Of a stretch of 64,000 nt of DNA, positions 19,978 through 59,193 are shown one piece after another. Every line of letters begins with the position of its first letter. The stretch's first letter is position 1. Position numbers and translations under genes: made by a program. The DNA comes from Planctomyces sp. (GTDB lineage: Bacteria > Planctomycetota > Planctomycetia > Planctomycetales > Planctomycetaceae): contig SXPC01000069.1 of NCBI GenBank assembly GCA_005778225.1, forward strand, positions 3,806-67,805, in the 5' to 3' direction. The notes beneath the pieces are model-generated. The model searched no databases and had not been told where the DNA came from. It saw nothing but the letters and a program-made list of their open reading frames with translations.

Positions 19978-20032
19978 AGTGGCAACGGTCGGATTCGAAC
20001 CGACGACCCGCGGCTTATGAGTCCGCTGCTCT
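19978..20032. repeat. attL: 55-bp direct repeat of tRNA 3' part
   Basis: Identical to 58919-58973. Confidence 0.95.
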
Positions 20033-20130
20033 CGCTACATGATGAGCTAGACCTAACTTCCAATTGTGCTTAGCATCCGACCTTTCGCGATTCATAATTC
20101 AGGAATTCTACTTCGGAAGGAACCGAAAAA

Positions 20131-20574
20131 ATGAGCGGCTCGGATGCCATTCTCGTCACCCAAACGCCCGACGGAAAAACTGCTGATGACACCAGATTCA
20201 TTCTCGAAGACAAACACGGCGAGTTGGTCGAACGATTGACCACGTCTCGCGATCCTCGCCCGGTCGACTCAATTCCCCGCTGGCGGCCAGCTCCCCCGCT
20301 GCCAATGAAAGAGACGATCGCTGAGCCCGTCCCACGCGAGATCACCGACGAGCTGAAAGTGAAGCCTTGGGATCTGATGAACCGTGAGGAACGCCGGGCT
20401 CTCAAAAGGCTGATTCGACGCACGGAGAACGCCCGTCCCAACCTCGAAGATATCGAACAGATGGCGAAGTCTTTAGGCCTCGGCAAATACGCGACGCCAG
20501 AGATGATGAAGCCAATTCGTGCTGTGGTAATCGACGAGATTCACGACGGAAAACCACTCGCGCAGGCTGCGTAA
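20131..20574 (+). CDS. Prophage hypothetical protein
   Basis: AAGGA RBS; 147-aa ORF. Confidence 0.6.
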   Translation: MSGSDAILVTQTPDGKTADDTRFILEDKHGELVERLTTSRDPRPVDSIPRWRPAPPLPMKETIAEPVPREITDELKVKPWDLMNREERRALKRLIRRTENARPNLEDIEQMAKSLGLGKYATPEMMKPIRAVVIDEIHDGKPLAQAA

Positions 20575-53414: not shown

Positions 53415-53681
53415 TTAACCCTTTGCAGTTCGGACGTAATTCGGCGTTTTGCTTACCGGCATTAAGTCGCCCAGAGGGTCAAAGAAAACCGGCTCAGCGA
53501 CTAAGCCAGGCTGGTCGATCGGTTCGGCAATGGCGGTCAGCAGCTCCGACCGCAAGATGGTGATACCGGCAGGCGCTTGAATGCCGAGACGCACTTTGTC
53601 GCCTCGAATATCAACCACCATGATGGTGATGTCATTTCCGATACGTATCGTCTGATTCAGCTTTCGTGAGAGGACTAACAT
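53415..53681 (-). CDS. csrA: Carbon storage regulator CsrA/RsmA homologue
   Basis: MLVLSRKLNQTIRIGNDITIMVVDIRGDKVRLGIQAPAGITILRSEL. Confidence 0.92.
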   Translation of the reverse strand: MLVLSRKLNQTIRIGNDITIMVVDIRGDKVRLGIQAPAGITILRSELLTAIAEPIDQPGLVAEPVFFDPLGDLMPVSKTPNYVRTAKG

Positions 53682-53743
53682 TGCGATTCCCTTCAATGAT
53701 GATTCACCGGGCGATCATCGCCGGCCCGGCAACGGCGTGTGTT

Positions 53744-54622: not shown

Positions 54623-54859
54623 CTAGACCTCTATGCCGTGTTTTTTAAGTTCCTGAATCCAGAACTGCTTCAGCTCATCGGAGCAGTGAGCCATGGCATC
54701 GGCCCACGTCGGAAAGCGGCCATGCTGACCGTAGAATTTGTATTGGTAGTACATCGATTGTTGATTGTGTGGCCACGATGGATCGTGATCCTTCGCGCAT
54801 TCCTGACAGACGTCGGGAGCGCATGGCATCAGCGTCCACGGTCCCAAGTGATTGCTCAT
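54623..54859 (-). CDS. Small putative metal-binding phage protein
   Basis: CQECA..H...PHNQQS..Y...PTWADAMAHC; GGAGG RBS. Confidence 0.65.
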   Translation of the reverse strand: MSNHLGPWTLMPCAPDVCQECAKDHDPSWPHNQQSMYYQYKFYGQHGRFPTWADAMAHCSDELKQFWIQELKKHGIEV

Positions 54860-55224
54860 ATCGATTCCTCCCTGAGCAGTCCGACGCGTTCCATACACCA
54901 GGCACGCCAATCAAGATTTCCACGAACCAGGTCGTCGGCCGGCGGTACAGCAACCGGCAGATAGCGAACAAGAATCACATTCTCACCGGCACGTTGCCCG
55001 CGTTTTGTGACGTAGTCGATGTGCATCCGCTCCGGATCTGGCTGACGTTCCGCGACGATGATTTTTTCCATCTCGCCGACGTGATCGTTGACCTGATCAA
55101 GCACATCAACACGACGCGGGCTCTCTTTTTTGCCCTCGTAAACGAACCGCATCAGAAAGGGAGCCCGGCCGACTTCCATCGGCTCCGGAAACGACGGATG
55201 TTCAAGTTTGACAAGCACGGTCAT
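54856..55224 (-). CDS. Hypothetical protein
   Basis: GGAGG RBS; ATGA coupling. Confidence 0.6.
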   Translation of the reverse strand: MTVLVKLEHPSFPEPMEVGRAPFLMRFVYEGKKESPRRVDVLDQVNDHVGEMEKIIVAERQPDPERMHIDYVTKRGQRAGENVILVRYLPVAVPPADDLVRGNLDWRAWCMERVGLLREESI

Positions 55225-55299
55225 GATCGGCCCTCCGGGAGACCGCCGGTCGGGCGCACCTTAAACCGCGACCGACGGCACTCCGAGAGGGATCGAACA

Positions 55300-56376
55300 T
55301 CAAACGGCCTTGCGCCGTGTCTTCGTGAGAGCTGGGTTAACATCGCTGGAGATCTCCTCCAGGAAGCATTCCGGGACAGCGCAGTTCTCGATCGCTTCGC
55401 GAATCCGCTGCGTCGGGTTGTCGTAGAACTCCGCCGTCACGCCTTGGACGTAGTGAGCCGTGATCCAGTTGCCCAAGCCCGCTTCGATCGTGTTGTATCG
55501 CGTCGCCACCGTCTCGCGAAAATTCTTGAAGATGAGACGATCGGTGAAGCCGGCGGCCGGCAGAATGTCGCGCCGCCACGTTGCCCGCCAGCCTGTCTTC
55601 CAGGAACCGTTGCGACGCTGATGCCCCGACGTCGTGAAGCCCGGAAAAATCTTCGTCTCGGTCGATCGATACGATGGAAGCGACTGCAGCTGGCGAATGA
55701 CGACGTCCGTCAGCGGCAACGATTGCAGCTTCGAAGTCTTCTTTGCGATGATCCGGATATTCCGGTCCTGCCAGTGGATTTGATCCCAGCGCAGATTGAG
55801 CGTGTCGGTGGTCCGCTGCCCGTACGTGTAGAACATGCAGAGCAGGACCTGCCAGGACCGGCAACAATCTTTCTTCCTGGTTGGATAAGTCGCGAAGCGG
55901 CACGCATCCCACAGACGATCCATTTCGTCGTGTGTGATCGTCTCGCGTTTGATCTTCGGCGGGATCCGCACAAGCCGCGACTTTTTCCGATAGCCCAGCG
56001 AGGGAACCCGGTTGATCAGTTCGGCGTCGTGAGCAAACGAGAAGACGGCTTTGACCTCGCGCCAGATCTTGTTGATCGTCGACGGTGACAGCGGCTTGCC
56101 CGCCTTCGTTGTTGTCAACTTCAAACCATCGGAAAACGACCTGATGTCGTCCTTCCCATACGACCGAATATCGCGAACTCCGAGGATACGCTCGAAGTGC
56201 CTGATGGCATTGCGGTCCTCTTTGATCGACCCCGGCGACTGATCCTCCTCGATCTCTTTGAGAACGAAGTTTTCGTAATAGTCGGAGAGCGAAATCAGCG
56301 AATCGTCGGTGGTTTCGTGTTGTTCTTCGTCGCCCGTAAAGAGACGCAAAATATTGGGGCTGGCAGCAGCGATCAT
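55300..56376 (-). CDS. int: Tyrosine recombinase/integrase
   Basis: YGQRTTD..LRWDQI, KKT, FKNFR, AHY..VTAEFY. Confidence 0.88.
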   Translation of the reverse strand: MIAAASPNILRLFTGDEEQHETTDDSLISLSDYYENFVLKEIEEDQSPGSIKEDRNAIRHFERILGVRDIRSYGKDDIRSFSDGLKLTTTKAGKPLSPSTINKIWREVKAVFSFAHDAELINRVPSLGYRKKSRLVRIPPKIKRETITHDEMDRLWDACRFATYPTRKKDCCRSWQVLLCMFYTYGQRTTDTLNLRWDQIHWQDRNIRIIAKKTSKLQSLPLTDVVIRQLQSLPSYRSTETKIFPGFTTSGHQRRNGSWKTGWRATWRRDILPAAGFTDRLIFKNFRETVATRYNTIEAGLGNWITAHYVQGVTAEFYDNPTQRIREAIENCAVPECFLEEISSDVNPALTKTRRKAV

Positions 56377-56618
56377 GGCCCGGATCTTTCACCAGTTGAC
56401 TACGGCGCTCCATCTCCTCCATGGGAAATGACATGACTCCCTCGCAGTCTTCACTCACTCGAAGACTTGGGAATTCTTTAGCACGCAAACAGCAACGGAT
56501 CAGCGTTCATAGATGGCGAACGGATAGCGAGAACAATTAGACACGGGGACAGTCGGCATAACCGAAAGCCCCGTTCTAATCGAAGCACGGTGTGAGCAAT
56601 TCACCGCGCACAAAAAAA

Positions 56619-56715
56619 CTCGTAATCGTTCAACCAGCCAAAACCCCTTATCCGAGGGTGCGGCGGTAAGAATTCTGTTTAAGGAACTCCGACCTCCGCG
56701 GCTGAACGATACGAG
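56619..56715 (-). ncRNA. Putative three-way-junction antisense/attenuator RNA
   Basis: Long closing stem, two hairpins, followed by U7; G-U pairs favour the minus strand. Confidence 0.55.
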
Positions 56716-56794
56716 ATGAAACCCGATAGTTCTGAGCAGCAGCAAAACGATGTGACATACATCGTAGGGCGGAATAAGTAATTTGGTTGAGACC

Positions 56795-56822
56795 ACATTA
56801 CCTTCCGCCGCGACGGTGTCAA
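56795..56822 (-). promoter_or_regulatory. sigma70-type promoter of int/early operon
   Basis: TTGACA-16 nt-TAATGT. Confidence 0.65.
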
Positions 56823-56959
56823 CCCATATCTCGCGCAGAGCCGCGCGTGTCTGTCAGCAGGACAGTGAAGAAAAAGCAACTCGCTCCTAATGTGTGGTGG
56901 ATGGTCTCCCGCACTTTCTGCTCGTCAAATTCTCGTGTGAGTGAGATATAGAATGGACC

Positions 56960-57718
56960 TTAATTCAAATTTGCAGATAGGCGAAACAACATGGCGTTGG
57001 TTGCCTGCTGATCGACTAAAGTCATCGAGCCATCCGGATGATGAATTAGTATGGCCGCGGTTTTTCCCATCCGACGCTCCACCAGTTCGATACTTTGTTT
57101 TAGATCTTCCCTGGACTCAATCAGAATCGGGGCATAGCCTTCCAAACCCTGCTCTTCAATGGTCTGTCTGGCGATCTCTTCTGCGGGGAATACACAGATG
57201 CATAATGGGGGAAACTCACCGCCTCCCATAGACAGCACTCCCTCTTTCCTTCGCTCTTCATTTCGGAATCCCGCCAAGTAGCAGGGGAAACTCAGGCGAA
57301 CGGTTTCCGTCCCGTCGGAGTGTTTTTGCTGCAACGAAAATGAGTCCATCAACGATGCCAAGTAGGGTGGCAACGGACGCTCGACATACAGGAGCGAGTA
57401 CAGCGATTGTTCGATTGTGAGAAGTAGCCGATCCTTCGATTTATCAAAGGGATCGATGATGAGATGAGTTACTTGCGGAAACCGCATCATGACACTGGCT
57501 ATCCACCCGGTCAGGTCGCAGTGATTCTGGATTTCATAGAGAAACTCGTTGTTCCGAATCCGGGTCTCTTGACTTCGCGATGTGAAGAGGAAGACAGCAT
57601 GACGGTCTTCCCCTATGTTGTTGCTTGCAAACGGTGCACTTGTCAGAATCTCGGAAGAGTGTTCTTTCAATGTGACAAAGTACATCGGCACGCGCACGAC
57701 TTGCTGCGATTTTTTCAC
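56960..57718 (-). CDS. Accessory hypothetical protein
   Basis: GGAG RBS; 252 aa. Confidence 0.6.
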   Translation of the reverse strand: MKKSQQVVRVPMYFVTLKEHSSEILTSAPFASNNIGEDRHAVFLFTSRSQETRIRNNEFLYEIQNHCDLTGWIASVMMRFPQVTHLIIDPFDKSKDRLLLTIEQSLYSLLYVERPLPPYLASLMDSFSLQQKHSDGTETVRLSFPCYLAGFRNEERRKEGVLSMGGGEFPPLCICVFPAEEIARQTIEEQGLEGYAPILIESREDLKQSIELVERRMGKTAAILIHHPDGSMTLVDQQATNAMLFRLSANLN

Positions 57719-57795
57719 TTAAGCGGACTCCATTTCCAAATCTGACCGACGTTCGCTTCTTTTCCCCGTCGTCCATCCTAGTAAAAAGGTCAGCT

Positions 57796-58146
57796 TCACT
57801 GCCGACCCGCTAAACTCATTTGCTGTACCTTCCAGTCGAGGTAAGGCTGCAGGTCAACGATCATCTGGTGATAGCCCTCGGTCGTCTGGAGGCACTCGAT
57901 GTGTTGCCAGTGGTGCTGGTCATCGAAGTAGAACAGCGGGATTTTTGCCTTCGGAACTTTGACAGCGACTTTGCCTTGAGGAAGAGCGCGAGTGTCGCGA
58001 TTAGCGGCCGCTTCCAGTGTGGTTGCGTGTCCCAGTACGGTCATAATCAAGTGATCAAGGTCCTGATACTCTGGTCGCTCAACAGCCTCCGTGATGAGTG
58101 ACCAATCCAGATGGAAGACATGATTTTCGTATGCCAGGGTGACCAT
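57796..58146 (-). CDS. Accessory hypothetical protein
   Basis: GGAG RBS. Confidence 0.6.
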   Translation of the reverse strand: MVTLAYENHVFHLDWSLITEAVERPEYQDLDHLIMTVLGHATTLEAAANRDTRALPQGKVAVKVPKAKIPLFYFDDQHHWQHIECLQTTEGYHQMIVDLQPYLDWKVQQMSLAGRQ

Positions 58147-58245
58147 GGAAAAACTCCAACTCGGTCAAGCCAGCCTTGGCAGGTTGCTCGCCGCATTTTT
58201 GCACGCGATGCTTCCGTAAAACTCAAAGACAAACGGGCAACAAGA

Positions 58246-58641
58246 CTATTTTGGTTTGTTAGGTGGTCGGTGGTCGTCGTCGACGTACTCTTCCCTCGGT
58301 CCGAGTGTCGATTCCAGATCCTGCAAGTCTTTGTCATCGTCGCGAGTGACGAAGATCAGCGCTTCGATTGGAGCAATAACCGCCGTCTCACGGCCGGGAC
58401 GGCGGATATTCTCCATGTGTTCACGAGGCTGATGCGGAATATGAACCACTCGATCGACTCGGAAACAAAGTCCATGGTATGACGGACTCAAGTACTCGCC
58501 GACAACTGGCAATCGCGGAAACGGATAGACCGGATCTTTTAACGGTGGAACTTTGCATTCCTTCTCCGTCCAAGTCTTTGTTAATCGAACCATCGCATAG
58601 GTTCGAACTTCTGAGGCATACTCCGTGCGCTCTTCGCTCAT
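58246..58641 (-). CDS. Accessory hypothetical protein
   Basis: 131-aa ORF; FPRLPVVGEYL motif. Confidence 0.55.
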   Translation of the reverse strand: MSEERTEYASEVRTYAMVRLTKTWTEKECKVPPLKDPVYPFPRLPVVGEYLSPSYHGLCFRVDRVVHIPHQPREHMENIRRPGRETAVIAPIEALIFVTRDDDKDLQDLESTLGPREEYVDDDHRPPNKPK

Positions 58642-58748
58642 TTACTTCTCTTCCATGGGAAAGCAAATCCGTGGAGCTTCGCATCCCAGCGAAGTGGCAT
58701 AGCAGCCAAGATTGAAGGCGTCGTTCTTGACGCCAAACAAAAAGACAA

Positions 58749-58827
58749 ACGGGCAGCGAGAGATATCCAGGCTACTTATTCAAAAGCCCCGAGGAGAGTC
58801 ACCTATTCCCCGCTTCTCGCCGCCCGT
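58749..58827 (-). ncRNA. Putative three-way-junction RNA next to attR
   Basis: 13-bp closing stem ACGGGCGGCGAGA/TCTCGCTGCCCGT, GUGA-capped hairpin, second hairpin, U-rich tail. Confidence 0.45.
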
Positions 58828-58918
58828 GTGATCCTTTTTACGGTGGCGCAGCGGATTTATAGTCCGCAGCGCCAATCAGGTCGTATTTTCGAGAGTAAAG
58901 CCTTCCGCAGAAGGACTT

Positions 58919-58994
<76 letters not shown>

Positions 58995-59193
58995 ATCTGT
59001 GGAGATGGACACAAAACGAGACAATCAAATCGACTGTCGGTTCGCATCTGAGGCAGAATCTTAGTCAATCAGATCGTCTGATTCAATTTCGTACGCCCGG
59101 TTTTTCGGGTCTCCCTCCAAAATCTCGTCTGATCGTGATCCATCAGCAACGATCAGGCGATATGGAAAACAGCAGACGTCTTCAGATCAAAGC

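Follow-up and report, generated by a model that had tools for sequence, protein, structure and literature searches.

A few enterobacterial phages (P1/P7, P4 and N15) are known to control their lysogeny genes by RNA alone. In P4, the CI RNA is a three-stem antisense RNA, a loop of which pairs with the leader of the operon that is kept off in the lysogen. CI and C4 RNAs are cut out of longer transcripts by RNase P, and in vivo they end transcription early or block translation. The promoter of the N15 CA RNA is followed within ~180 nt by an intrinsic terminator, and the resulting short RNA gates the operon downstream. The C4 RNA is phage-encoded and non-coding and is built of three stems, a closing stem and two hairpins; one of its loops finds its target in the leader of an operon that the lysogen has to keep off (PMC5320573). 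This loop (about 8-12 nt) and its target vary together between phages, which sets specificity (PMC5320573).

The locus described here lies on a contig of a freshwater-metagenome genome, in a 64-kb stretch of DNA that was analysed at its full length and is referred to below as the window. The region of interest would comprise the promoter and 5' leader of a prophage integrase operon, and is read, with a probability that we put at about 0.55, as a terminator-type attenuator that gates the integrase gene (int) and is set by antisense pairing between the leader transcript (RNA-1) and a second structured RNA (RNA-2). Antisense-RNA control resembling P4 CI and P1 C4 in its logic is plausible. RNA-1 and RNA-2 are both modelled as three-stem RNAs, with a closing stem, two hairpins and covariation, and the loop of RNA-2 arm 2 is complementary to the 5' end of the int leader and covaries with it. 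Unlike the enterobacterial systems, however, RNA-1 is the target-bearing leader rather than the antisense effector, with effector and target residing in different RNAs; only one loop would pair, and its target is located at the very 5' end, upstream of the terminator, instead of at a ribosome-binding site. The putative effector, RNA-2, is encoded outside the leader, 0.3-2 kb further upstream where att meets the tRNA. Neither sequence nor covariance models link the prophage RNAs to C4, c4-a1b1 or isrK, and the host is not an enterobacterium. An initial annotation of the leader had proposed a P4 CI/P1 C4-like analogue; what survives of that proposal is a promoter-proximal three-stem leader RNA with a U-tract, whilst the loop pairings that it envisaged do not, and membership of the C4, c4-a1b1 or isrK families is not supported. 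The Rfam comparison that it called for (C4, c4-a1b1, isrK) yielded nothing, as an Rfam 15 cmscan returned no match for the leader, either in a scan of the whole window at the gathering threshold or in one of 56200-57000 at E<=10. In common with N15 CA, a promoter and a terminator are found within ~180 nt, a short RNA is predicted and a downstream operon would be gated. The N15 and prophage sequences are nevertheless unrelated, the terminator stem here closes a three-way junction and the gated gene is an integrase rather than an anti-repressor.

Neither RNA-1 nor RNA-2 is catalogued in Rfam 15 (RNA-2 was searched over 58600-59000 at E<=10, with no match), and literature searches surfaced no description of either; the main text of one candidate-RNA survey contains no integrase-leader motif and no 'Planctomycet-' term (PMC5737381). 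Together they form a sequence-unrelated, covariation-supported RNA pair that accompanies tRNA-targeting integrases, both in environmental metagenomes and in a bacterial family that has been little studied, and suggest that an integrase leader, far from being a plain spacer, can be a long and presumably regulated RNA. Should the pairing prove functional, it would provide a new and directly testable case of termination under antisense control, a possible means by which an element senses its own integration and two new RNA families for annotation libraries.

The integrase leader and its prophage setting

The prophage (19978-58973, ~39 kb) is bounded by a perfect 55-nt direct repeat, the copies of which occupy 19978-20032 and 58919-58973; the second copy forms the 3' part of a tRNA-Met gene and constitutes the att core. 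All of the long prophage ORFs inspected lie on the minus strand. Read from the tRNA, the order is three orphan ORFs, the leader region, the tyrosine integrase and then small ORFs, a CsrA homologue and DUF5131/DUF4326/DUF1643 genes (Table 1). The integrase start, ATGAT(C/T)GC, is kept among homologues.

Table 1. Coordinates of the features discussed, as positions in the window
Feature	Position	Strand	Remarks
Host tRNA-Met	58920-58994	-	3' 55 nt (58973-58919) are the att core
RNA-2, predicted three-way junction and U-rich tail	58738-58828	-	junction 58828-58755; 91 nt downstream of the att core
Three orphan ORFs	58641-58246, 58146-57796, 57718-56960	-	between tRNA and int promoter
Sigma-70-type promoter-like site	56795-56822	-	TTGACA 56822-56817, 16-nt spacer, TAATGT 56800-56795
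Unpaired AU-rich 5' end of RNA-1 (18 nt)	56768-56788	-	unpaired in MFE and centroid folds
Small hairpin P0 (ACGAUGU / ACAUCGU)	56747-56765	-	predicted fold; a hairpin at the same place in relatives
Three-way junction	56619-56715	-	16-bp P1, long hairpin P2, short hairpin P3, 7-nt joiner
U7 tract	56612-56618	-	directly after P1
Hairpin H1, opening with GUGCGC	56585-56611	-	RUGCGC right after the U-tract
Strong hairpin H2, then U-rich UUGUUCUC	56528-56580	-	equally strong hairpin here in relatives, several with a U-tract after it
Downstream targets proposed in the initial annotation	56487-56526	-	TATCCG 56526-56521; ATCCG..CTGTTT 56500-56487; complementarity at chance level
Alternative-frame ORF, 383 aa from TTG 56488	55337-56488	-	+2 frame, overlaps the whole int gene
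Tyrosine integrase, 358 aa	55300-56376	-	Pfam PF00589 4.7e-12; phrog_1 2.9e-26

Pfam and PHROG searches with the three orphan ORFs gave nothing above threshold. In a relative from the X2 run, ~91% identical, exactly two blocks are kept, one holding the tRNA and RNA-2 (58741-58985) and the other the promoter, RNA-1 and int (54854-56910), and the 1.83 kb separating them is swapped for 660 other nucleotides. The replaced interval, 56911-58740, carries the three orphan ORFs and extends from RNA-2 to the int promoter; the 660 nt found in its stead are unrelated, and it is a swappable cargo or immunity slot. The orphan-ORF position in another relative, L004, is occupied by what we take, on reading the translation, to be two tandem helix-turn-helix-like ORFs. 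The notion of a repressor-less lysogen, as originally put forward, is not borne out by this arrangement of ORFs between tRNA and promoter in the window and in L004. Several repeats were also observed here. A 27-nt direct repeat, 85% identical, is found just after the first orphan ORF (58219-58245) and again just after RNA-2 (58735-58761). Between the tRNA and RNA-2 lies a perfect 11-bp hairpin, GGCGCUGCGGA-CUAUAAA-UCCGCUGCGCC (58846-58874, minus strand), which resembles the anticodon arm of the adjacent tRNA-Met, and a similar tRNA-like fragment follows the tRNA of L004.

The promoter-like site and the imperfect palindrome overlapping it, both of which had been pointed out beforehand, are present. 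The promoter is absent from the consensus-scan list because its -10 element matches TATAAT at only 3/6 positions; transcription is predicted to start near 56788 (-), and the inverted repeat spans the -10 element and this start site (about 56806-56771). The predicted RNA-1, ~177 nt in length (about 56788 to 56612), opens with an AU-rich 5' end, continues with a small hairpin and the three-way junction, and closes with U7. Its 5' end contains UACUUAUUC (56780-56772) and the box UCCGC (56773-56769). The core, described from the outset as a long stem enclosing two hairpins and followed by U7, is upheld by folding: the closing stem P1 is formed from the strands 56715-56700 and 56635-56619, the predicted free energy of the junction is -46 to -53 kcal/mol and its z-score is -4.7, with 0/200 shuffles as good, whilst the full predicted 177-nt RNA-1 has a z-score of -4.2.

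At the sequence level, a stable 16-bp P1 stem with a U-tract directly 3' on the transcribed strand has the make-up of an intrinsic terminator, and the G+C-rich stem base with U5-7 directly after it is shared with canonical terminators. In contrast to the 3-8-nt loop of the latter, however, the RNA-1 stem is capped by two conserved hairpins and a joiner, ~65 nt in all. The 5' strand of P1 would therefore be made long before its 3' strand, which leaves an interval for regulation. H2, further downstream, is likely to be a second terminator-like element, judging from its predicted fold. We regard the fold of RNA-1 and its terminator-like end as genuine and conserved.

The leader was found to be single-copy in its own genome by DNA search, and none of the listed public sequencing runs that contain this DNA is recorded as RNA. 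Its description as rich in hairpins holds for the structures; it is not wholly non-coding, as an alternative-frame ORF with a strong Shine-Dalgarno sequence starts within it at 56434. A further ORF, 56500-56796 (98 aa), was considered as a gene and rejected; it has no Pfam or PHROG match, and coding in this interval is disfavoured because the leader of the X2 relative carries three separate 1-nt indels.

A family of structured leaders upstream of tyrosine integrases

DNA searches with the leader gave no match in 60 relatives or in a phage collection, and homologues were therefore sought through the integrase. Scanning genome and viral contigs with the integrase as a single protein brought up no close relative; the homologues recovered are at most 48% identical to that of the window, and a class-wide integrase search added nothing outside the family. 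The regions upstream of these homologues are unalignable as plain sequence, yet they have a common architecture. The same topology was obtained in 10 independently folded full-length loci (L023, L028, L030, L031/32, L033, L034, L039, L045, L046 and L047), all with P1, P2, P3 and a joiner of consensus UUWGG, directly followed by U5-7 and then by RUGCGC. L058 is an eleventh further full-length member, identified by covariance-model match only, and L005 is a partial one that is cut at a contig end. The family is small and partly kin, with L045, L046 and L047 coming from one genome (G083).

A promoter-like pair similar to that of the window (TTGACA-like / TAnnnT) precedes the U-tract at the same distance, 185-205 nt, in the 10 loci whose upstream sequence is long enough. 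It is followed by CC, an AU-rich stretch of ~12 nt, (A)UCGCC and a small hairpin, and the segment equivalent to the 5' end of RNA-1 is AU-rich with an (A)UCGCC-like sequence at its end in all relatives. Every RNA-1 member is located 144-312 nt upstream of a tyrosine integrase, and where flanks are available the order is tRNA, RNA-2, promoter, RNA-1 and int. These features define a type A integrase-leader RNA family (promoter, ~75-85 nt, P1/P2/P3 junction with joiner UUWGG, U5-7, RUGCGC), into which the window fits. 'Type B' leaders (L006, L024-27, L029 and L035) have a different three-way junction without a clean U-tract and are unmatched by the covariance models R1 and R2.

As MAFFT and RNAalifold missed the fold, the folds of individual sequences were projected onto the alignment, and covariance models served to refine the resulting structures. 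R1, which was built on seven members, picked up members on which it had not been trained, namely L039 (36.8 bits) and three copies in the complete genome G083. Each of the G083 copies lies between a different tRNA-Leu gene and an ORF of 340 or 341 aa; two of these ORFs are Pfam-confirmed tyrosine integrases, and the third (L047) has no Pfam match and is ~27% identical to the integrase of the window. With R2 all members score 51-94 bits, the window reaching 61.3 bits with this model and 65.9 bits with R1, and full-length R2 matches in four whole genomes are confined to such integrase loci.

The stem sequences of P1-P3 differ between members and covary. In alignment A5, 72.8% of cells are paired compared with 61.5+-1.6 in shuffles, a value that 0/500 shuffles reach, in covariance-model alignments that are fitted to the structure and leave 27% of cells unpaired. 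Cells with a double change number 55 in A5, as against 25.5+-4.2 in shuffles (0/500 reach it) and 14-20 in slid controls, and compensatory changes occur in 23/33 pairs. The excess of GU/UG over AC/CA pairs in A5 (36 versus 19) favours the int-sense strand as the RNA.

The best-conserved part of the alignment consists of the junction nucleotides (GYCG|UGG ... GGGG-UUWGG-CCGG). This conservation counts in favour of the junction being a riboswitch-like or protein-binding aptamer, in which the binding of a small molecule or of a phage or host protein sets the formation of P1, and CsrA homologues are encoded downstream of int in both the prophage and a relative. There is, however, no clearly conserved anti-terminator, the GGA motifs in the loops are not conserved and the gene context offers no clue to a ligand, which makes such an aptamer highly improbable.

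Five T residues of the U-tract and TGCGC are invariant in all aligned members. The RUGCGC that follows the U-tract (ATG or GTG, then CGC; 56611-56606 in the window) is present in all members, where it opens ORFs of 5 to ~60 codons with very different sequences, and could be either a leader-peptide start codon or a conserved hairpin or binding site.

The family also allowed the original pairing scheme to be evaluated. According to this scheme, the RNA-1 loops AAACAG and CGGAUA pair with CUGUUU, AUCCG and UAUCCG downstream and thereby stop transcription or translation ahead of int. The hexamers and their complements are indeed present at these places, and three stems, one of them a closing stem, resemble C4 as described (PMC5320573). 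The matches are only 5-6 nt, however, and their energies are at chance level. The P2 and P3 loops of 11 members were compared with their own post-terminator leaders and with those of the other ten, and no cognate preference of hairpin loops for the downstream leader was found in these 11 family members. For the window, the loop/leader duplexes reach -7.1 and -7.6 kcal/mol against non-cognate means of -7.3 and -7.9, ranking 7 and 8 of 11. The covariation of loops and targets expected across relatives is likewise missing, as the loop sequences are not conserved and have no covarying target, and no C4-type Rfam match speaks for the scheme, to which we attach very little credence. The preferred reading places the pairing partner of RNA-1 elsewhere, upstream of the promoter.

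RNA-2 and the 5' end of RNA-1

The second structured RNA is encoded close to the att core (Table 1). RNA-2 has a closing stem, two arms (1 and 2) and an AGG-containing joiner, and ends in a U-rich tail or strong terminator; the loop of arm 1 is of the GNRA type in most members. Double-change cells in its alignment number 48, compared with 20.6+-3.6 in shuffles (0/500 reach it), and RNA-2 of the window scores 37.1 bits with the covariance model R3. R3 also matched a pair of additional tandem copies in L031 and, in G201, a single copy located 1 kb upstream of the L028 RNA-1. In L031 the layout is tRNA, RNA-2 copies, about 1.2 kb, promoter, RNA-1 and int; here, three tandem RNA-2-type junctions (L031:520-816) follow a tRNA-Asn, with arm-2 loops that are similar in copies 1 and 3 and different in copy 2.

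The apex of RNA-2 arm 2 carries GAAUAAGUA (58781-58773), which is complementary to 56780-56772 of RNA-1. No further copy of this 9-mer or of its complement exists in the 64 kb, for an expectation of 0.06. Complements between the RNA-1 5' end and arm 2 measure 9 nt in the window, 11 in L030, 8 in L031, 12 in L045, 10 in L046 and 11 in L047, as compared with non-cognate matches that reach 6-9 nt, and a 7-nt complement was identified by eye in L028/L052. In every case the upstream complement coincides with the arm-2 apex of RNA-2, and its sequence differs between elements. When the six elements were compared in a 6x6 matrix, the cognate duplexes (-13.3 to -21.7 kcal/mol; -20.9 for the window) were the best in every row and column, whereas non-cognate duplexes gave -2.3 to -12.1 kcal/mol. 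The predicted complementarity between the RNA-1 5' end and RNA-2 arm 2 is thus one that covaries in six elements. The upstream sequence available for L033, L034 and L039 yielded no RNA-2; matches of 8-11 nt in L033 and L039 lie outside any RNA-2-like fold and were treated as chance. The RNA-1 of L058 and the RNA-2 of L049, which are on different contigs, have no complementarity evident by eye.

A different account of these data is that the leader is a constitutive insulator or structured 5' UTR, blocking read-through from the tRNA and cargo genes or stabilising the mRNA, and that the 9-12-nt repeats are bound, as DNA, by a protein (Int, Xis or a repressor, for instance). Inverted repeats that covary might in principle serve as protein-binding sites of this sort, and one arm of the repeat overlaps the start site and the imperfect palindrome at -10 in the manner of an operator. 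It is also the case that the tRNA and cargo genes are upstream of the int leader on the same strand, and that the terminator features are invariant. Nevertheless, a conserved promoter stands between cargo and terminator, which implies that the terminator acts on its own transcript. Similarly, the upstream repeat copy always falls at the arm-2 apex of a covarying RNA fold, and only one inverted pair exists, without a cluster of arm-type integrase sites near either att end (none was found near 19978-20300 or 58700-58919 with the 9-mer and up to 2 mismatches). We therefore regard the account by insulation and DNA sites as rather unlikely.

RNA-1 might alternatively be a stable small RNA of ~177 nt that acts in trans, or as a sponge for RNA-2, with int expressed from elsewhere. 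A promoter with a terminator ~177 nt later amounts to a complete small-RNA gene, and RNA-2 weakly resembles the RNA-1 junction in its modelled fold, R3 matching the RNA-1 of L045 weakly, at 16.4 bits. Against this stands the constant position of RNA-1, which in every case precedes a same-strand integrase by 144-312 nt; no other promoter for int is evident. We know of no trans target for RNA-1, and consider a free-standing small RNA improbable.

We favour instead control of int by attenuation, and infer from the sequences that both RNAs are made, that transcription terminates, that the two RNAs pair in vivo and in which direction control runs. Most transcripts from the promoter would stop at the three-way-junction terminator (P1 and U7), and integrase would be made only once that stop is overcome, a decision most likely set when the initial ~10-20 nt of the leader pair with the loop of RNA-2 arm 2. 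In the preferred direction, pairing would favour termination and keep int off in the lysogen, the alternative being that it promotes read-through. The 5' box (AUCGCCAC-like) has a second potential partner in the 5' strand of P2, with which it tends to covary; cognate pairs rank about 2.9/10 on average, but the window ranks 8, and this alternative pairing is suggestive. By sequestering the box, RNA-2 could, we conjecture, favour folding of the junction and termination; because the pairing of box and P2 is only suggestive, the route from RNA-2 binding to altered termination is put forward as conjecture.

No sigma-70-like promoter of its own was seen for RNA-2 by eye. For this reason, and because RNA-2 shares the strand of the tRNA and is separated from the att core by 91 nt, the tRNA promoter may be what drives it, and then in the integrated state only. 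A tentative and somewhat doubtful extension is that the two RNAs act as a sensor of the integration state without a protein repressor. The tRNA promoter would then supply RNA-2 only in the lysogen, where its loop would pair with the int leader and force termination. After excision, or on infection, RNA-2 would lose its promoter and the leader would be read through, leading to expression of the integrase and the genes behind it. Under such a scheme, covariation of loop and box would define immunity or specificity groups among elements.

Reading frames across and beyond the integrase gene

Two observations concern the leader and the genes beyond int. The int leader contains a GGA-rich sequence, CAUGGAGGAGAUGGAG, at 56421-56406. 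Both the window (53415-53696, minus strand) and a relative (L023:4290-4426) have a gene for a CsrA homologue within a few genes downstream of int.

The alternative-frame ORF has an ATG at 56434, within the leader, that is preceded by the Shine-Dalgarno sequence GAGGGAG (56443-56437). Across int of the window, the +2 frame contains 1 stop, whereas synonymous shuffling leads one to expect 12.2; in all of the 22 remaining long ORFs of the window, this frame is interrupted by 5-64 stops. Equivalent ORFs are found at L004:848-2740, L005:962-2620, L023:337-1926, L006:1388-2656 and L007:1299-2840, and run ~500 nt past the int stop in some loci. No Pfam domain was detected in the alternative-frame ORF, the part of the L005 ORF beyond the int stop has no homologue, and the extensions in L005, L023 and L004 are mutually unrelated. 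In the distant G083 integrases the +2 frame is not stop-free. Among members of the window's integrase clade, all nine that were tested have 0-3 stops across int in the +2 frame versus 4-14 expected (P<=0.003 each), and the ORF is a candidate overprinted gene or else the mark of an unexplained constraint.
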